Virus record (IMG/VR): IMGVR_UViG_642918906_000001
Location: 64,001-128,000 of that record
DNA: 64,000 nucleotides
DNA from: a virus
Taxonomy: Duplodnaviria > Caudoviricetes
Reading direction: 5' to 3' (one strand)
Within the stretch, counting starts at the first letter, position 1. Each line of letters starts with the position of its first letter. The notes beneath the pieces were generated by a model, which was not told the origin of the DNA, made no database searches, and saw only the letters and a list, made by a program, of their open reading frames with translations. Of this stretch, positions 4,277-62,642 are shown piece by piece. A program made the position numbers and the translations under genes.

Positions 4277-5950
4277 ATGTTTAACATTAACCAGGGCGCA
4301 ACAGTAGGTAATTCGCAAGTACGCTTTGAACCTAACGGTTTCATTGCAGTACAGACCGGCACCTATCAAGCACAATGTCTACGACCGTTTAAAAGTAATA
4401 CCAACGAGGCAGTAGTTGGTGCACTGCGTCAAGCTACTCACGATGGTCTTAACCTCGGCGTAGCAGCCGTGCAAGAGATCGCCTCTGATGTTATTGTTCC
4501 ACAAGCTATGGTCGAAGGTGAGGTAATGATTCCTCACAACTTCACCTCGGCACGATTCCGCCTGATGTGTCGTGTAAACGAATCGCATCCTTTCATTCAG
4601 GGTACCACTACCCAGCGAGTCTTCTTCGGTTACTCCGACCATTGTGACGTTGCAATGGGTGGTAAGCATCTGCCTGATGACATGCGGATTTACTTCAACT
4701 CTGAAACGATTATCCAAGAGTCTATCGTGCCAACTCCACATGGGCCACAGACTCAAGCCCGTATCATCGGATCTAACCAAATCATTTCCCCAGTCAACAT
4801 GATGGGTGGCAATAATGGGATGTTCGCTCGACCAAGTAACTTCTTGATTCGTCCTGAAGATAACTTTAACTTGATGCAGACTAAAGCAGTTGCAAAGAAC
4901 CTGCAAGAGAATGGTCTGGTTGATGTTAAGATCGATACCTCCTACGACTATCGCACGATGGTAGGTGAAGGTGGCTCGTTCAAGTATTCGATGCGTAAGG
5001 ACACTTCTCCAGTTCGTTATCTGTCGAGTTCGTTGGGTGCATATCAACATGCGCGTTCCGAATATAACGACACCATGCGTGATTCGGATACATTGCTGTT
5101 CAACAAAGGTTCTGATCCAACCGAGACACTGCTTGGCGAAGCGGCTAACATGTGTCGTAACCATGCAATCCAATCGAATACCTTCCTGGGTATTCTGCGT
5201 GAGCATGCTGGCTTCATGGAACGTGGCTATGTAACTTGGAAACGTTTGAAAGAACTGTTCCCAGAACTGTGCCATCCTGAAGTTGCTAAGTTCGCTATGA
5301 ACGATGGCACCACCCAGCGTAAGGTCGTTTCCCAAGCGCACCAATCGCAAACGTTCAATGGCGCTGACAATAAGTCCATCGCGGTGGCACTGTTGTCTCA
5401 GGCTATTCCATCGATCATGATGGATACGTTCTTCCGTCAAGTGTCCTTTGCGGTAACTAACGGTAGTGGTCCAAACGAATATCTGTTCGAGATCTTTCCG
5501 AATGGTACCCAGAGTATCATCCGTAACTTCGACATGCGTCCGTACATTCAACAATTGGAACGTCGCGTTAAAGTAGATATCCTGAACAATATCTCCCGTG
5601 GTAATCAGATCCCATTCCGTATCAGCTGTAGTTCGGACTTGGCTGGTGAAACCATTATGGACATCTCACTGGGTAATGATCCAGTAGAGCGTTACGTTGC
5701 ACCGACTTTCGCAGATAGTCTGTTCTCACCGGTGATCACTCGTAACCAAGAACTCTCCAATGAGATCGCTAACGATATCACGTGGCTGGTTCGTAAGGTT
5801 ATTGATGGTGACGCTAGTCGTCAACCTGAGATCGATATGACGCAAGTCTATACTCCTTATCAGCATCCTGTAGCACCAGCTGCACAGTTTAATCCTCAAG
5901 CACTTAATACCGGAGCACAAAACAATGTCGCAAACCTTGGCCTCCTATAA
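4277..5950 (+). CDS. picA: Phage-nucleus protein import factor PicA/Imp1 (phiKZ gp69-like)
   Basis: 557 aa, immediately after the gp68-like gene; size and synteny; SD GAGG. Confidence 0.7.
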   Translation: MFNINQGATVGNSQVRFEPNGFIAVQTGTYQAQCLRPFKSNTNEAVVGALRQATHDGLNLGVAAVQEIASDVIVPQAMVEGEVMIPHNFTSARFRLMCRVNESHPFIQGTTTQRVFFGYSDHCDVAMGGKHLPDDMRIYFNSETIIQESIVPTPHGPQTQARIIGSNQIISPVNMMGGNNGMFARPSNFLIRPEDNFNLMQTKAVAKNLQENGLVDVKIDTSYDYRTMVGEGGSFKYSMRKDTSPVRYLSSSLGAYQHARSEYNDTMRDSDTLLFNKGSDPTETLLGEAANMCRNHAIQSNTFLGILREHAGFMERGYVTWKRLKELFPELCHPEVAKFAMNDGTTQRKVVSQAHQSQTFNGADNKSIAVALLSQAIPSIMMDTFFRQVSFAVTNGSGPNEYLFEIFPNGTQSIIRNFDMRPYIQQLERRVKVDILNNISRGNQIPFRISCSSDLAGETIMDISLGNDPVERYVAPTFADSLFSPVITRNQELSNEIANDITWLVRKVIDGDASRQPEIDMTQVYTPYQHPVAPAAQFNPQALNTGAQNNVANLGLL

Positions 5951-21837: not shown

Positions 21838-23967
21838 TTACAACTTTGGGGATTCTACCTCAACTACTTCACCTTTAGACTTGAGATAAGCTTCCAACAG
21901 TTTATCCAACCGTGGGGCCTTGAGAACCTTCTGAGCGATCTCAATCGCGTTAGTGCGGCAACCGGTCAAGTTAACACCCAGCTCTCGTTTGGTGTGATCA
22001 GACACGCCTTGCAGAGCAGCTGTTTCCATGATCGTAGTTTCACGAGCAATGTTCAGGATCTGACTTACGTTTGGATAAGTCGAAACGATGTCCAAGTCCG
22101 CTACGTGAGCAAAGATCAAACTACGGTAGTTAGGGAAATCCTTAACGCACTTCAAGCCATTAGGACCAGCCATGTAGGAAGGGAGTGTTACAATCCATCC
22201 GTCATGACCTACCACGTATTGGTCGAGTGGGTGTAGCATCTGGTCCGAACTAGAACCGATCACACATGGTTCTTCACGGTTGAGATACCAGAAGTGCATG
22301 TCGTCACACAAACGCTTAGGGTTCGAGTTAAAGTTCTTATAGTCAGAAGACTTCGAGAACAATGTAATCGAACTGGCCAAGTCATTGATCTTCTCATCGA
22401 GTTGCTCTAGTCGAATGCTGTCGATGATGTTGTAAAGACCGTAACGCACTTTATGTTTAACCTGCATCTCACGGTGCCATTCGATCCCGAACAGATGATC
22501 AGTTTCTGCAAACTTCAACTTGCCGAAGTTCAGCTTAAACGATACTTTAAAGCCAGGTTGAACGTTAACACCCCAGATAAGTTGATCAACGTCGTCCCAA
22601 TGACATTCACGGATCTCTGTGATGTTATCACCTTCACTCAGGTCATAGATGGCCGAAGCATCATCGTCATCATCGAAATCCGGGATTACGTCTTCACCTT
22701 CCTCGTCCTCTTCAAGATCGTCTTCTTCCTCTTCGTCTTCTTCAACGCCAGAGTAGTCGACTTCAGTCTTGTAGGTGATGGTGTCATTGGCTGGGTTAGA
22801 CACAGCCCAATAAGGGTAACTACCTGAACGGTCTGCCATGGCCTTATTAGCCATCTTAATGAAAGCATTCAGGTCTTCTTCAGTCTTGATTTCAGCTTCT
22901 TCATCAACGCTCAGTTCTTTCTTAAGGATTGCGTCCAGTGCATAACTGGATTCTTTACCTTTAGCCAGACGAGTAACTCGATAAGTAGCCATGCTGTCAA
23001 TACACTGGAAGCTAGCTGGAGCTGTAACCCAATGCCATTGGTCTTCTGGACCCTTAGACTTGGTAACACCCGACGCAGTAACCTGCATCGCTTGGTCTTC
23101 TTTGTAATAGAACTTCTTGTATTCACGTGGAATACTCGGATCACTAAACACGTCAGCTGGATTAATCCCAGCATCTTCCAACGTCTTCAAGATCCGCTTC
23201 ATGTCGAAGTTGATGTTCCAGAAAGCAAAGAAGTCAGGCTTCCACATATGCAGTCGACGCATACACTGAATCACTACATCCGCCGAGGTCTCTACGACTT
23301 CAATATGAATGTTCAGATTACGAGCTTTCTTCAAAGTAACCAGTTCTGGAATACGTTCCAGTTCTTCAAGGGTTTCTTTAACTGGATCTTTAAGGTCTTT
23401 AACCCAATGCTTGAGATACGCAAGGTATACGTTCTCTTTGTGTGTAACGGACATACAGATGATCTGACCATCGTGCTCTGCTTCATACACGTTAGTCTCG
23501 ATGTCGCCACCAGCTACTGTGTTACGTGAGATCAGATCAGGGTTAGCCGTACGGTAATCGTTCTTCAAGCAGCATACGCTAGATACGTCACTGCCATACA
23601 GATAAGGACTACGTGAGAGTTGACGTAGTCTAGGGTTAGGACCCATTGAGTAATCTTTAAGTGCCTTAGCTACGGCAAATGGCATCTTAGACTGAGTTGT
23701 CTTAAACTTACGTAATTGACTAACGGGCATGTAGTCCCGTTTCTCTTTGTACGTACGAAGGTTCTCATCTTTGTAAGCCATTGGGTCTACGTAGAATGAC
23801 CGTTCGTAGTTAGGGATGATCTTAATACGTGGAATACGTCGCTTGTCCTTTAGATGGACAACCTCCTTAACTACGTGGATGTCATTACGTCCACCTTGTT
23901 CGGTTACATAGGTGATATGTTTGGCTTCAATGCCTAACACATCTTCTTTGCTAAACTCTTCGTTCAT
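21838..23967 (-). CDS. Split family-B DNA polymerase, exonuclease plus motif A subunit (phiKZ gp82-like)
   Basis: Exo I GDIET, Exo II WNINFD, Exo III YNIID, pol motif A DLDIVSTYP near the C-terminus; no DTD motif C seen. Confidence 0.85.
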   Translation of the reverse strand: MNEEFSKEDVLGIEAKHITYVTEQGGRNDIHVVKEVVHLKDKRRIPRIKIIPNYERSFYVDPMAYKDENLRTYKEKRDYMPVSQLRKFKTTQSKMPFAVAKALKDYSMGPNPRLRQLSRSPYLYGSDVSSVCCLKNDYRTANPDLISRNTVAGGDIETNVYEAEHDGQIICMSVTHKENVYLAYLKHWVKDLKDPVKETLEELERIPELVTLKKARNLNIHIEVVETSADVVIQCMRRLHMWKPDFFAFWNINFDMKRILKTLEDAGINPADVFSDPSIPREYKKFYYKEDQAMQVTASGVTKSKGPEDQWHWVTAPASFQCIDSMATYRVTRLAKGKESSYALDAILKKELSVDEEAEIKTEEDLNAFIKMANKAMADRSGSYPYWAVSNPANDTITYKTEVDYSGVEEDEEEEDDLEEDEEGEDVIPDFDDDDDASAIYDLSEGDNITEIRECHWDDVDQLIWGVNVQPGFKVSFKLNFGKLKFAETDHLFGIEWHREMQVKHKVRYGLYNIIDSIRLEQLDEKINDLASSITLFSKSSDYKNFNSNPKRLCDDMHFWYLNREEPCVIGSSSDQMLHPLDQYVVGHDGWIVTLPSYMAGPNGLKCVKDFPNYRSLIFAHVADLDIVSTYPNVSQILNIARETTIMETAALQGVSDHTKRELGVNLTGCRTNAIEIAQKVLKAPRLDKLLEAYLKSKGEVVEVESPKL

Positions 23968-24036
23968 CGTAGTGCCTCAACATGAATAACTGTACTCTAT
24001 TAGGAGTGCTAGTATTGTTAACCAGTGGGTTAACGA

Positions 24037-24167
24037 ATAAAGCAATAAGGATGTTATTAGCTTCGCTAATAGTTAATTAAGAAATAAAGGCCTTCGGCCC
24101 ATCCTATGCTCTTAGAGTAGTCTACATTAGATCAGCACTACCAGTATTTCTTAACACAATCTTTATG
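24037..24167 (+). repeat. Structured dispersed element, copy 1 (two hairpins, conserved AT linker, TATG motifs)
   Basis: Matches the reverse complement of 62397-62526; see findings. Confidence 0.8.
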
Positions 24168-24191
24168 ATTCCAATTAATTAGGTTACCAAC

Positions 24192-25469
24192 ATGCTAAAC
24201 AATACTATTTCAACAGAGGTGTTAGTCATAGGCGCTAAAACACCACTGGTAGACATTTGTCGTAATTACGTTAAGAAGATGCGTGCAGCATGGCCAGACT
24301 ACCCTAATAATGATAACCGTTTTAGTTACAGTAATAAACCATGGATTAATGCCACTGCTGAATTCGTAGATCTCATTCGTAAGAAGGTAGGACCTAGGAT
24401 CAGTATTGATGTATACAGCGGTAATGATTTCTTTAACATGGGTGTAACATCACAGATCTGGTTTATTGGTCATTCAGGTTCAAGGTGGTACGCTAAAGAT
24501 AACTATCGAATTACGGCTGGTAATGAAGCCTCGATCAAAGAGACATTAACAGTCGACCTACAGAACGTAACTGTTAAAGGTGAGTTAGTTGATAACCTGA
24601 CGTTTAGACTTTACTACACTGAAACAGTGATGTTTAACACTCAGATGTTCACTGTAGACGAAGTCGTTGCTGTAATGATCCATGAGTTCGGCCATATCTT
24701 CGATACATTCATGACTCTAGGCGACTACGTCTGGTTGAACTACTATCTCACTGATGGTATCGAGATCCTGTTAGGTAAGAAAAAGAACGTACTCAACATT
24801 GATATCCTTTCTGAGAAATCAGTAATGGCGATGGTCGATAGCGATAAAGATGCTGAAGCCTTCATGAATGAGCGTAATGAGGATACAGCAAAGCGCGTTG
24901 TACTAAGCCTACTCAAAAAGGCACCTAGACACCACCTGACTCAGAATGATCTTATTGCTAACCGTCGTGAAGAACAGCTCGCTGATCTTTTCTGTAGTCG
25001 TCTTGGAATGGGTAGACAGTTCGCTCAGTTTGAATTCAAAATGGCGAAGTACTTTAATGACCCAATTCTCAGTCGCACTAACTGGTTCGTCGAAACCGCT
25101 AAAGCTGTATTTGCTGTAGCGACACTACCATTAACTGTTTTATGGGTAATCGGACATGATCCTTTAAACGGTGGGTGGACTGGTCGCTATGATGACTCTA
25201 TCCAAAGATTAACAAAATTCCGTCGAGACTTGATTGCACAACTTAAGAGTCCCGGACCCCTTGATCGAGAAAGCATTGTTGAAGACATTGCCGTAATCGA
25301 TGACATTTTAAAAGAGTATAGCACTAACGTAAGTTTCTACGATAGTCTTATTACTTTCTTCCGTCCTAGTATTCGCAAGCAACAGCAAAATACTAAGATG
25401 GAAAATGATTTAGAATCCCTATTCCACAATGACCTGTTCTTACAGGCTTTTAAACTCAGTAAAATATAA
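24192..25469 (+). CDS. Virion head protein (gp84-like) with HExxH zinc-metallopeptidase motif
   Basis: AVMIHEFGH...EEQLAD; first gene of the late structural cluster. Confidence 0.65.
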   Translation: MLNNTISTEVLVIGAKTPLVDICRNYVKKMRAAWPDYPNNDNRFSYSNKPWINATAEFVDLIRKKVGPRISIDVYSGNDFFNMGVTSQIWFIGHSGSRWYAKDNYRITAGNEASIKETLTVDLQNVTVKGELVDNLTFRLYYTETVMFNTQMFTVDEVVAVMIHEFGHIFDTFMTLGDYVWLNYYLTDGIEILLGKKKNVLNIDILSEKSVMAMVDSDKDAEAFMNERNEDTAKRVVLSLLKKAPRHHLTQNDLIANRREEQLADLFCSRLGMGRQFAQFEFKMAKYFNDPILSRTNWFVETAKAVFAVATLPLTVLWVIGHDPLNGGWTGRYDDSIQRLTKFRRDLIAQLKSPGPLDRESIVEDIAVIDDILKEYSTNVSFYDSLITFFRPSIRKQQQNTKMENDLESLFHNDLFLQAFKLSKI

Positions 25470-52137: not shown

Positions 52138-52410
52138 ATGTTTGGTTCTCTTTTGAAATACACGTGCGTCGCTGCATGTGGTGCACTGGTGTTTTCGACC
52201 ATGGGTCACTTCATGGATTCGGACGTAATCGAATCTGCCAAAGCGACCTGTGAAGAAAACGTCAAAGCTCTCAGTGGCGAAGCGGAAGGTGATGAACTGG
52301 CGTTGCTCATGAAAGCATTCGTGGCAACTCACTACAAAAACTGGGTTAGTCAACTGACCTTCGCTGGCAGCGTAAAAGATCTGGATGCCGTTCTGGCACC
52401 CTGGGCATAA
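52138..52410 (+). CDS. Signal/TM-anchored small protein
   Basis: Hydrophobic N-terminus. Confidence 0.6.
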   Translation: MFGSLLKYTCVAACGALVFSTMGHFMDSDVIESAKATCEENVKALSGEAEGDELALLMKAFVATHYKNWVSQLTFAGSVKDLDAVLAPWA

Positions 52411-61150: not shown

Positions 61151-61196
61151 CATAAAGCCTCTCCTTCGGGAGAGGCCTATGTTGTTTATTTTTTTA
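61150..61196. terminator. Terminator between convergent genes
   Basis: GCCTCTCC-TTCG-GGAGAGGC with CATA and TATG flanks and a T tract. Confidence 0.8.
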
Positions 61197-62339
61197 CTTC
61201 TCTTGGCCCATACGGCTGAACATTTTCATGATACCGTAGGTTACCTCAGTAACGTGTTTAATAGTGTTAGCTGCAAGTTCCAATACTGGCGACGCAGCTT
61301 TCTCAATATTACCACGTTTGTCATCAGGTAACCCTTTGATGAACTTTGTCAGTTCGTCAACGTCTTTCTCAAGTTTGGCCATTACTGGACCGAGACCCTT
61401 AACCTTCTCGATTACTTGACCGAAGGTTTTAGTCGACTCAGGAATAACAGTCAGCTCGTCACCTTTACCGCCACGATAATTTTTGTTTACCAGTGCGTAG
61501 GCCAGATGGATAGGCCAGTCAGTGGAAGTCCACTCTTTCATCGGAGCGTCAACATCGATTTCTTCAAAGTAAGCACGACCGTCTTTTACTTTAACGGTGG
61601 TGTTGTTCATCAGCATGATATTCAAGAACTTAGACAGAGCTTTACCGTCTGCACCATTCTCAGCCATCTTGCGTACTTTACCCATACCTTCGGCGATCAA
61701 TGCCTCGAGATCCTTGATACCTTTAATCTCCATGTCGAACTGGGACATGTCCATGAGCTCATTACGCATATGGAATAACTGCCAGGCCTCTTTCTGGTTA
61801 ACCAGAACGATTCGATTTTTTGTATTATGCATGTTACTCTTAATGGCGTTCAACTTACCAAGAGCCTGTTTGTAATTGGACATCATGGTGCCAACCGATT
61901 CATCTACCCGATCAGCATAACCTTCCAGGCTACCAACTGCTGTGCTACGGATATGATCAGCGTGTTCACGGATAGCACGAGTGAACCGACGCACGCCACC
62001 TTTGGTATTTTTAAACTCTTCCATAGAGTGGCTATGTGGCCATCCACCGAGAGTAGATAGTTGAGTAAAGATACGTTTATACGATTCCAGTGCTGGTGCA
62101 GTGGTAATACCATCGGCATCTTCAGCCAATGCATCTAGTTGTTCAGCTACGTCTACGGAGTCAACGATCGGATCAAGAGATACATCCGGTGTATCAATAA
62201 CTTCAGTAATGGTGTTATCGATTACCTGGTCACCTTCAATGACACATTCTGGTGGGATAGTGTTCATGAACTCTTCGATTGCTACTTGTTCAGCGGTCTT
62301 ACCTGCTTTCGGTTTATACAGTGGGTTGGTCTTTGCCAT
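61194..62339 (-). CDS. Internal head protein paralog
   Basis: AIE, ALE, SME and SLE maturation motifs in the acidic N-terminus, as in the 34-44 kb paralogs. Confidence 0.65.
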   Translation of the reverse strand: MAKTNPLYKPKAGKTAEQVAIEEFMNTIPPECVIEGDQVIDNTITEVIDTPDVSLDPIVDSVDVAEQLDALAEDADGITTAPALESYKRIFTQLSTLGGWPHSHSMEEFKNTKGGVRRFTRAIREHADHIRSTAVGSLEGYADRVDESVGTMMSNYKQALGKLNAIKSNMHNTKNRIVLVNQKEAWQLFHMRNELMDMSQFDMEIKGIKDLEALIAEGMGKVRKMAENGADGKALSKFLNIMLMNNTTVKVKDGRAYFEEIDVDAPMKEWTSTDWPIHLAYALVNKNYRGGKGDELTVIPESTKTFGQVIEKVKGLGPVMAKLEKDVDELTKFIKGLPDDKRGNIEKAASPVLELAANTIKHVTEVTYGIMKMFSRMGQEK

Positions 62340-62396
62340 TTCTAAGGTACCTTATAATCTTTAGTTATTTAGCCTGATCAGGGCTGGATATTACAA

Positions 62397-62526
62397 CATA
62401 ACATTGAATTAAAATACTTGATATGCCAACACTGTGTATAAACCCCTACTAAAAGCATAGGATCGCCCGTAGGGCCTTTATTTCTTAATTAACAGATATT
62501 GCGATAGCAATACAACATTGCTTTAC
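62397..62526 (-). repeat. Structured dispersed element, copy 2
   Basis: Reverse-complement homolog of 24037-24167. Confidence 0.8.
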
Positions 62527-62549
62527 TAGCGTAAGCTTAACTACAGTAA

Positions 62550-62642
62550 CGATAAGCCCTCTCACAACAGAGAGGGCATTTATGACGTTAATTACAATGC
62601 TCTCTGCAAGAGGGAATAAAGCCCTCCCCTAAGGGAGGACTA
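62550..62642 (-). terminator. Two stem-loops downstream of the minus-strand paralogs
   Basis: GCCCTCTC...GAGAGGGC at 62556-62577 and CCTCCC-CTAA-GGGAGG near 62623-62638. Confidence 0.55.

Follow-up and report, generated by a model that had tools for sequence, protein, structure and literature searches.

A family of covarying, hairpin-bearing intergenic modules in phiKZ-like Pseudomonas jumbo phages, tentatively read as cis-acting RNA

Hairpin-bearing elements that recur between phage genes have been described in several forms. The put RNA of HK022, with two copies per genome located after promoters, folds into two hairpins with covarying stems and acts in cis on its polymerase; the PeSL cassettes of T4-type phages are repeated intergenic combinations of a promoter and a hairpin, found in either orientation and present or absent from locus to locus. 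At the DNA level, mini-hairpins with GNA loops are exceptionally stable, and hairpin-based origins and promoters exist, among them the promoters of the N4 virion polymerase and single-strand initiation sites. The element described here resides in phages of the phiKZ type, which rely for transcription on RNA polymerases of their own and not on the host enzyme (PMC7598289, PMC4666361). Their late promoter is T(-3)ATG(+1) (PMC7598289; PMC4666361), all four bases of TATG being required (PMC4666361), and TATG alone is not sufficient for late-gene expression (PMC4666361, PMC7598289). ONT-cappable-seq of phage 201phi2-1 revealed conditional terminators, terminators directly after promoters and 11 small RNAs (sRNAs), eight of them derived from 5' untranslated regions, and antitermination was proposed there without a known signal or factor (PMC11512511); a terminator motif of phiKZ is quoted in a further study (PMC10914365). 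We analysed a window of 64,000 nucleotides (nt), positions 64,001 to 128,000 of the 316,674-bp phiKZ-like genome of IMG/VR virus record IMGVR_UViG_642918906_000001 (G000:C1), in which a dispersed intergenic element of ~130 nt occurs twice; positions below are those of the window unless stated otherwise.

The two stretches, copy 1 (24037-24167, + strand) and copy 2 (62397-62526, inverted), belong to an ancient family of structured modules, ~110-150 nt long, which occur in multiple copies between the genes of phiKZ-like Pseudomonas jumbo phages. Copy 1 reads, in order, TAAAGCAAT, a first hairpin (H1), GTTAATTAAGAAATAAAG, a second hairpin (H2), and CATCCTATGCTCTTAG ... CAGTATTT ... CAATCTTTATG. 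The original prediction, made from the window alone, had described this layout, an inverted second copy and near-identical linkers between stems that differ in sequence and still pair, all of which was borne out by reading the sequence: the copies share the 21-mer GTTAATTAAGAAATAAAGGCC, which is exact at these two window sites only and has 0 matches in 100 shuffles, and in copy 2 TATTGC pairs with GCAATA and GCCC with GGGC. The mean column identity of the two copies is 73% in pairwise alignment.

A covariance-model scan, set beforehand as a check, found further copies as well as conservation in relatives. Model R1, built from five close-relative copies with H1 and H2 as structure, returned single sites across genera in phiKZ, phiPA3, Phabio and D6 (E=6e-4 to 1e-2), and in the alignments of these sites blocks and hairpins follow one another as in the window copies. 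Model R2, built from ten sequences, gave outside its training set the copy in PS119XW, two further Phabio copies, a third Viktualia copy and three weaker D6 sites (Table 1). This genome has at least four copies, two of them outside the window: the third is a weak site with R1, and the fourth was found by R2, again outside the training set. Between one and four copies are present in each of Viktualia, Phabio, D6, phiKZ, phiPA3 and PS119XW, and the models found more in uncultivated jumbo-phage contigs. We aligned 27 copies in total, 18 of which were found by covariance model alone, while nine were fished with patterns containing the boxA-like motif TGCTCTTA discussed below.

The copies occupy orthologous loci. 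Those of copy 1, between the genes for a DNA polymerase and a phiKZ gp84-like virion protein, are present in Viktualia and in three uncultivated viral genomes (UViGs; L057, L044, L049), in which the DNA polymerase is 75-78% and the gp84-like gene 44-52% identical. Copy-2 orthologues occur in Viktualia and UViG L008, and in phiKZ, phiPA3 and PS119XW a helicase-like gene is found close to one copy, at loci that may be syntenic with copy 2. In 47 Phikzvirus records the phiKZ copy recurs with 95-100% identity, and no feature is annotated at its place.

Simpler searches reached less far. With blastn, both window copies were found in Pseudomonas phage Viktualia, with no other match, and blastn-short within the genome recovered only the two window copies, copies 3 and 4 requiring the covariance models. 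A pattern scan of IMG/VR added one contig with copy 2 (L008), and two IMG/VR motif scans gave 38 loci, 11 of which have a model match at E<=0.1, two of the 11 being Phabio itself. Motif searches of the genome (GCTYTTAG, ACATWAGA and combined patterns) yielded no further convincing copies; the candidate sites 30975 and 45703 from these searches were inspected and rejected. A metagenome scan with the core pattern gave four loci, all of one unrelated sequence and thus chance matches, and a search for relatives among viral contigs via the gp84-like protein found none. Rfam 15 has 0 matches in the window at gathering scores, and a permissive Rfam 15 scan of seven copy-bearing loci gave four matches, all at E>=2.4 and none on a copy; the search for transfer RNA and transfer-messenger RNA found none. 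The main texts on phiKZ-like transcription, as far as the portions cited here go, mention neither the element, nor PHIKZ117, nor a jumbo-phage boxA, and none of the papers listed by a literature search combines phiKZ with boxA; supplementary Tables S1-S4 of PMC11512511 and S3-S7 of PMC10914365 may list transcript starts, ends or sRNAs at these coordinates.

On the strand that runs into the late genes in the window, hereafter the late-gene strand, the family layout from 5' to 3' is blocks A and B (TAAGAGCA..TAAGGA), H1, block C (GTTTATTAnGAAATAAA), an optional G+C-rich H2, block D (CCTCCTwTGCTCTTAGT), block E (TACATTAGAT) and block F (CAGTATT). The pairing of H1 and H2 is maintained by compensatory changes in the homologues. 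In the 27-copy alignment, 94.9% of the cells of both hairpins can pair, compared with 60.8% in shuffles and 36-58% with the partners slid, and 53 cells carry changes on both sides of a pair, compared with 15.1 in shuffles (0 of 500 shuffles reach 53). Nine of the ten pairs change on both sides, five of six in H1 and all four in H2. The alignment was fitted to the model structure, which favours pairing; the independently listed stems show the same pairing. H1 has a stem of at least 5 bp in 20 of the 27 copies and comes in at least 12 stem variants, among them GGTATTGC, GGTTAC, GAGTTAC, TATACC, TCTCATAC, GTAGAGCAGT and TATAGAGC, whereas the pair that closes its loop never departs from C-G in the 18 copies that have letters at this place. 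The lineages of copies 1, 2 and 3 in this phage and Viktualia have an H2, as do phiKZ, phiPA3 and PS119XW; Phabio, D6 and the UViG copy-1 sequences have none. As the stems keep pairing while their letters change, the conservation points to hairpin formation, and hence to a folded single strand, rather than to a protein site on double-stranded DNA.

The loops were a central point of the original prediction, which had listed those on the opposite strand of the two window copies as c-GAA-g, c-GAA-g, c-GATA-g and c-GTA-g, and so they read. In the family, loops of this G..A type with C-G closure on the opposite strand hold for 15 of the 20 H1 stems of at least 5 bp, and for H2 in the copy-1 and copy-2 lineages, phiKZ, phiPA3 and PS119XW. 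They do not extend to five H1 loops, to the many copies that lack H2, or to the third-copy lineage, where H2 is reversed (GGGAG-gaa-CTCCC in copy 3 here, GGGAGG-gta-CCTCCC in Viktualia copy 3) and its GAA or GTA loop lies on the late-gene strand.

According to RNAalifold, blocks A and B are pairable with block D, which would close a three-way junction around H1 and H2. The energy of this duplex against shuffles has z<0 in 15 of 18 copies and p<0.05 in three of the 18, with z=-3.5 for copy 1; its register differs between genera, so that a single column-wise structure cannot be written for it. Folds of the whole element as RNA gave z between -1.9 and +0.2 on either strand and are uninformative. 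An extra hairpin, H0, stands directly 5' of copy 1; the same position has GTTAACC-tagg-GGTTAAC in Viktualia and a different stem, TTCATC...GATGAA, in L057 and L049.

Each window copy carries two TATGs, as had been stated originally, one within block D and one at the 3' end (Table 1). The two have separate origins. A ATCTTTATGATTA-like sequence lies upstream of the gp84 orthologues of phiKZ, phiPA3, Phabio, PS119XW, D6 and Viktualia as well as of L057, L044 and L049, and CTTTATGATT precedes gp84 orthologues in seven phages and three UViGs. Taken together with the known TATG rule, this conserved upstream sequence indicates that the 3' TATG of copy 1 is the ancestral late promoter of gp84; judging from the comparison, the last ~25 nt of copy 1 are thus a separate, older feature, and the ~110 nt before them are an addition. 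The spacer before gp84 is 224 nt here and in Viktualia, compared with ~105 nt in phiKZ, phiPA3, Phabio, PS119XW and D6. AGTAT or AGTAA of the block F type stands ~25 nt before the gp84 TATG in phiPA3, D6, Phabio and PS119XW, which have no module there, and CAAT.GTATGTTAT, resembling the 3' end of copy 2, precedes the Phabio paralogue of the gene downstream of copy 2, again with no module there. Near-repeats bracket copy 1, AGTATTGTTAAC at 24012-24023 and AGTATTTCTTAAC at 24143-24155, and AGTAT is also found on both sides of the phiKZ and phiPA3 copies; the near-repeat may be a trace of module insertion or a weak promoter-associated box.

Only six of the 27 copies have the TATG within block D: both copies here, the two Viktualia counterparts, copy 2 of the UViG, and D6_1. 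In the other copies, sequences such as TTTG, GATG or GTTG stand in its place, and the UViG orthologues of copy 1 (L057, L044, L049) are without it. When 87 intergenic TATGs upstream of genes were aligned, nothing was conserved beyond TATG, so what the copies share cannot be put down to promoter context in general. AGTA[AT] 16-34 nt before TATG is found at 9.1% of intergenic and 4.1% of coding sites, a weak difference, and the phiKZ middle promoter AAanTTACc (near -24; PMC4666361) was not seen in the conserved blocks when these were checked by eye. The 8-mers enriched upstream of genes are terminator arms and an early-promoter-like TTGAGATTTATATTAC, and the module blocks were not recovered among them; three of these 8-mers, TGAGATTT, GATTTATA and TATATTAC, are 10-14-fold enriched and together suggest TTGAGATTTATATTAC, which is probably the early-promoter motif of the phage.

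The orientation of the module to its neighbours varies. It points into a gene at copy 1 and its orthologues (gp84-like), copy 2 (a 381-aa protein), D6_3 (a baseplate protein gene divergent from SbcC) and Viktualia copy 3 (directly before a divergent DNA helicase gene), and the phiKZ copy points at the small genes 117.2 and 117.1, 325 nt further on. The placement before a late virion gene, proposed originally, therefore stands for both window copies and fails as a family trait, with other copies lying antisense or between convergent genes; the tie to late virion genes and to TATG is a local feature of two lineages and does not define the family. Since the internal TATG occurs in only six of 27 copies and the orientation to genes varies, a hairpin-dependent late promoter, the first function suggested for the element, is unlikely as the function of the family.

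We tentatively favour the reading that the module is a cis-acting structured RNA on the late-gene strand, and thereby the small or structured RNA that the original prediction had kept as its alternative; it is ranked ahead of, in this order, a function of the opposite strand, a DNA hairpin and a passive cassette. Action as RNA, the acting strand and any effect on elongation or termination are what we infer from these comparisons. The module would act as a folded single strand, most probably RNA, and would control the transcript that carries it in cis, by read-through or stop at phage terminators, or by processing into a short leader RNA. The late-gene strand is favoured because the order of hairpin(s) and then TGCTCTTA resembles the boxB-boxA order of the antitermination sites in rRNA leaders. 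In both window copies, the module lies directly upstream of an older TATG late promoter and has itself acquired an internal TATG. A perfect TGCTCTTA stands in 17 of the 27 copies, and 20 have the motif when one mismatch is allowed; nine of the 27, however, were collected by means of patterns that include it. For the 18 copies found by model alone, the figures are eight and 11. As blocks A and D are complementary, the opposite strand has a weaker boxA-like version too, which reads CGCTCTTA in copy 3. We consider quite unlikely the narrower proposal of an RNA for processive antitermination, or for termination control, that serves the non-canonical multisubunit RNA polymerases of nucleus-forming jumbo phages, in which hairpins and a boxA-like UGCUCUUA in the leaders of selected operons would let the polymerase read through numerous terminators.

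A number of observations weigh against a cis-acting RNA on the late-gene strand. At five loci (three in Phabio, D6_1 and D6_2), the module lies antisense to co-directional flanking genes, and the phiPA3 and PS119XW copies lie between convergent genes with no gene downstream. When the genomes are turned so that gp84 is on +, every one of the 15 copies that do not belong to the copy-1 lineage is on -, regardless of how the local genes run, while 68% of the coding bases of this genome are on +; such a bias would fit transcription of the opposite strand, or a polarity that belongs to the genome and not to individual genes. The outer A/B-D helix is weakly supported and shifts register between genera. 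The boxA-like motif is absent in phiKZ, phiPA3, PS119XW, copies 3 and 4 here, Viktualia copy 3 and D6_3, and the likeness was noticed post hoc, so that we treat it as a hypothesis. As the phages have their own polymerases, host Nus factors may play no role, and a mechanism of the Nus type would be surprising. The absence of G-U or G-T pairs inside any H1 or H2 stem, on either strand, does not discriminate between RNA and DNA or between strands, because the canonical terminators of this phage almost lack wobbles as well (four G-U and seven A-C in 371 stem positions of 45 terminators). Finally, the sole sequencing run with the region consists of contigs breaking inside the element: in the RNA-library run X1 (0.06 of sampled words), two ~39-kb contigs of a relative both end inside copy 1, and since they give no starts, ends or strand they are silent on expression. 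A loose contig end of this relative has the copy-2 type of H2 (CTACGGGCGATCC) at the copy-1 locus; this fits a repeat that interrupts the assembly, and suggests exchange between copies.

The next reading in rank, which we regard as doubtful, places the function on the opposite strand, as part of a 3' untranslated region or intergenic mRNA, or as a barrier at divergent junctions. Hairpins with G..A loops and the U-rich complement of block C would there stop or pause transcription, with insulation of the following gene (at copy 1, that of the DNA polymerase) or a small RNA of 3' origin as the outcome. The orientation data count for it, since at the five Phabio and D6 loci the opposite strand is the mRNA strand between co-directional genes, in PS119XW the module on that strand begins 48 nt after the stop codon of a + strand gene, and in all 15 copies outside the copy-1 lineage the opposite strand is the gp84 strand; the copy-2 lineage (this phage, Viktualia, UViG L008 and phiKZ), however, is flanked by genes on the other strand. 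A terminator on the opposite strand is suggested at copy 1, where the H2 region was flagged as terminator-like on the - strand (GGGCCGAAGGCCT and TTATTTCTTA; five pairs including one G-T) and GGCC-TTTAT resembles the tail of the phage terminator motif GGCTTTAT, which occurs 51 times in all and 38 times between genes. Yet the H2 of copy 2 is not flagged, the A/T-rich block C is conserved where H2 is absent (Phabio, D6 and the UViG copy-1 orthologues), the module stems have 4-5 bp compared with 8-9 bp in the 45 canonical terminators, and ~100 nt of conserved unpaired blocks would be left unexplained. Canonical terminators across the genome, such as the pair directly before copy 2 (Table 1), have 8-9-bp G+C stems and tetraloops followed by GGCTTTATG(C/T)CGTTA, and as a consequence nearly all terminator stems have a TATG 2-3 nt behind them; many of the sites are palindromic throughout (CATAAAGCC...GGCTTTATG), with TATG on both strands.

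An element acting at the DNA level, the idea with which the original prediction began, is unlikely. Hairpins extruded from single-stranded or supercoiled DNA would be recognised through their C-GNA-G or C-GNNA-G caps and serve as a priming site or origin, a hairpin promoter, or a packaging or anchoring site; in one possible variant, they would be strand-polar single-strand signals for priming or replication. To our knowledge, the replication origins of phiKZ-like phages are unmapped. The G..A loops in 15 of 20 convincing H1 stems, the closing pair invariant in 18 of 18, the Watson-Crick pairing of every stem position on both strands and an orientation that follows the genome rather than local genes would suit this reading, as would the replication genes that copies adjoin (DNA polymerase, a DnaB-like helicase operon, a DNA helicase and SbcC). 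Against these stand the five misfitting H1 loops and the third-copy lineage, whose H2 has its GAA or GTA loop on the other strand. Proximity to replication genes, at least four of ten lineages, has p~0.1 by chance on a rough estimate, and GC skew follows gene direction, with no origin-like turn at any copy. Nearest-neighbour hairpin energies are equal on both strands, just -2.9 to -4.4 kcal/mol for DNA and -5.2 to -6.7 kcal/mol for RNA, the special stability of GNA loops possibly lying outside the parameter set. The possible long-range A/B-D pairing would also form more easily in free RNA than in duplex DNA.

A passive regulatory cassette spread by duplication or recombination, its function limited to an extra promoter, a hairpin or recombination homology, is very unlikely: the longer gp84 spacer with its bracketing near-repeats, the internal TATG of both window copies and the copy-2 type of H2 at the copy-1 locus of a relative speak for it, but the copies sit at fixed orthologous loci even where gp84 has diverged to 44-52% identity, they are old (copies 1 and 2 are 73% identical, copies 3 and 4 much less alike), their blocks and pairing outlast the flanks (between this phage and Viktualia, the copy-2 spacer can be aligned over only 121 nt), and the internal TATG is no family trait.

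The gp84-like gene of phiPA3 is annotated as 'similar to gp145 in Pseudomonas phage 201phi2-1', and the open reading frames (ORFs) after the 425-aa gene of the window match PF25615 (PhiKZ_gp85) and PF25617 (PhiKZ_gp86). The 381-aa protein has tblastn matches in Viktualia and Phabio only (three records, two of which are Phabio), and two tandem paralogues of this gene family are found in Viktualia (L002 3129-5473) and in Phabio (L013 1363-3637). The Viktualia record places 'hypothetical proteins' of 33-43 codons, CDS0346, CDS0399 and CDS0400, over or beside the module (L001 3933-4037; L002 2897-2995 and 2980-3108); they are probably not genes, because the conservation pattern of the module is non-coding. 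A short peptide from the small ORFs over H1 was considered and rejected, as frame and length differ between copies and Viktualia copy 1 is without an ATG. In phiKZ and phiPA3, the copies lie in unannotated gaps of 685 and 808 nt (L026 2130-2814 = phiKZ 114629-115313; L027 1954-2761 = phiPA3 114453-115260). About 100 nt 5' of the module, the two gaps have in common AAAAATATAAT(C/A)..AC and, after it, a G+C hairpin plus the mini-hairpin TAGC-t(a/t)ac-GCTA; these could represent a promoter and the 5' stem of an extended non-coding transcript. Outside the window, the spacer before a 746-aa ORF (G000:C1:129974-130049), a putative major capsid gene by size and position, contains ACATTTAGAT and CCCATCCTGCGTAGG, reminiscent of blocks E and D; the models made no match there.

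Table 1. Positions of the module copies, their parts and their neighbours (window positions unless another sequence is named)
Feature	Position	Strand	Basis
Copy 1, full covariance-model match including module and adjoining gp84 late promoter	24030..24172 (genome 88,030-88,172)	+	R1 E=4.5e-19; R2 E=1.6e-20
H0, extra hairpin GTTAACC-agtg-GGTTAAC directly 5' of copy 1	24017..24034	+	read from sequence
Blocks A and B of copy 1 (TAAAGCAAT, TAAGGA), pairable with block D	24038..24051	+	conserved in both family alignments; RNAalifold
H1 of copy 1, TATTAGC-ttc-GCTAATA	24055..24071	+	covariation in family
Block C of copy 1, A/T-rich linker GTTAATTAAGAAATAAA	24072..24088	+	same letters in copies 1 and 2; AAATAAA kept across genera
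H2 of copy 1, GGCC-ttc-GGCC	24089..24099	+	all 4 pairs change on both sides in family
Block D of copy 1, CATCCTATGCTCTTAG, with internal TATG (24105-24108) and boxA-like TGCTCTTA (24107-24114)	24100..24115	+	
Block E of copy 1, TCTACATTAGAT	24121..24132	+	ACATTAGAT-like letters kept in phiKZ, D6, Phabio and UViG copies
Block F of copy 1, CAGTATT	24142..24148	+	AGTAT or AGTAA in nearly all copies
Putative ancestral late promoter of gp84-like gene, CAATCTTTATGATT, TATG 24164-24167, inferred start G 24167	24157..24170	+	
Divergent neighbour of copy 1, 709-aa DNA polymerase-like gene	21838..23967	-	phrog_3011 E=2.8e-234; Viktualia orthologue annotated DNA polymerase
Downstream gene of copy 1, 425-aa virion protein, phiKZ gp84 orthologue	24192..25469	+	phrog_2767; tblastn to PHIKZ084 and phiPA3 086
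Copy 2, full covariance-model match	62387..62533 (genome 126,387-126,533)	-	R1 E=1.5e-26; R2 E=6.3e-25
H1 of copy 2, TATTGC-tatc-GCAATA	62497..62512	-	
H2 of copy 2, GCCC-tac-GGGC	62465..62475	-	
Internal TATG (62459-62456) and boxA-like TGCTTTTA (62457-62450, 1 mismatch) of copy 2	62450..62459	-	
3' TATG of copy 2 (62400-62397), likely late promoter of 381-aa gene	62397..62400	-	
Downstream gene of copy 2, 381-aa virion structural protein	61194..62339	-	phrog_24630 E=5.9e-189
Two canonical terminators of upstream operon, directly before copy 2	62556..62639	-	match genome-wide motif GGCTTTAT
Third copy	G000:C1:227825-227961	-	weak site with R1
Fourth copy	G000:C1:184360-184490	-	R2 E=0.0027, outside training set
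phiKZ copy	114953-115091	-	R1
phiPA3 copy	114900-115041	-	R1
Phabio copy	52237-52372	-	R1
D6 copy	195946-196093	+	R1
PS119XW copy	112173-112304	-	R2 E=7.8e-7, outside training set
Further Phabio copies	115870-116018, 226945-227081	-	R2, outside training set
Viktualia copy 3	4875-5023	-	R2, outside training set

Gene control in phiKZ-like phages is poorly understood; conditional terminators and short leader RNAs are abundant in them. A module kept at fixed loci in at least five named genera and several uncultivated relatives is a testable candidate for a missing signal. Its 27 aligned members and two functioning covariance models also make it an RNA family ready for use in annotation pipelines; in current annotations, the module stretches are blank or lie under doubtful ORFs of 30-40 codons. 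Should the antitermination proposal be true, the module would be the first known cis-acting elongation signal for this polymerase class, and it would bear on what besides TATG decides late-gene expression.

Among known systems, the antitermination sites of the rrn leaders, whose order of hairpin and motif guided the choice of strand, and the nut sites of lambda offer likenesses. The TGCTCTTA of block D equals the rrn boxA UGCUCUUUA but for one U and the lambda boxA CGCUCUUA but for its first base, a boxB hairpin precedes boxA in the rrn leader as the module hairpin(s) precede TGCTCTTA, and the ACAUU-containing block that follows in the module has a parallel in the boxA spacers with conserved AUU and the nutR spacer cacauucca (PMC2724277). 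In contrast to nut and rrn, the motif is missing in seven of the 18 model-found copies, including that of phiKZ, the loops on the late-gene strand are UNC or UNNC and unlike the GNRA-like boxB loop, and the phages use their own polymerases, with no N-like protein or Nus dependence known; any promoter upstream of the module is putative. The short RNAs of phiKZ and 201phi2-1 are likewise structured, precede late or structural genes, arise through conditional termination and in some cases are kept across genera (sRNA005, ahead of the gp182 homologue), according to the portions of the reports cited (PMC10914365, PMC11512511). They differ from the module in that no canonical terminator follows it on the late-gene strand; sRNA005 lies ahead of the tail gene gp277 (PMC11512511, as far as cited), and the models gave no module copy ahead of the gp182 homologue. 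The remaining three systems introduced at the outset resemble the module in part. HK022 put shares with it the two-hairpin covarying architecture; put has no long conserved single-stranded blocks, however, and lies strictly downstream of its promoter. The T4-type PeSL cassettes are repeated intergenic hairpin cassettes as well, whereas the copies of the module are few (one to four per genome), old and at fixed loci, and their TATG is not conserved. The hairpin DNA signals have in common with it the short stems, the loops of 3-4 nt of the G..A type closed by C-G on one strand, and the strand-specific orientation, and are set apart by a single-stranded DNA stage that would be hypothetical at the module sites, by one lineage of the module with reversed polarity and by the much greater length of its conserved region.

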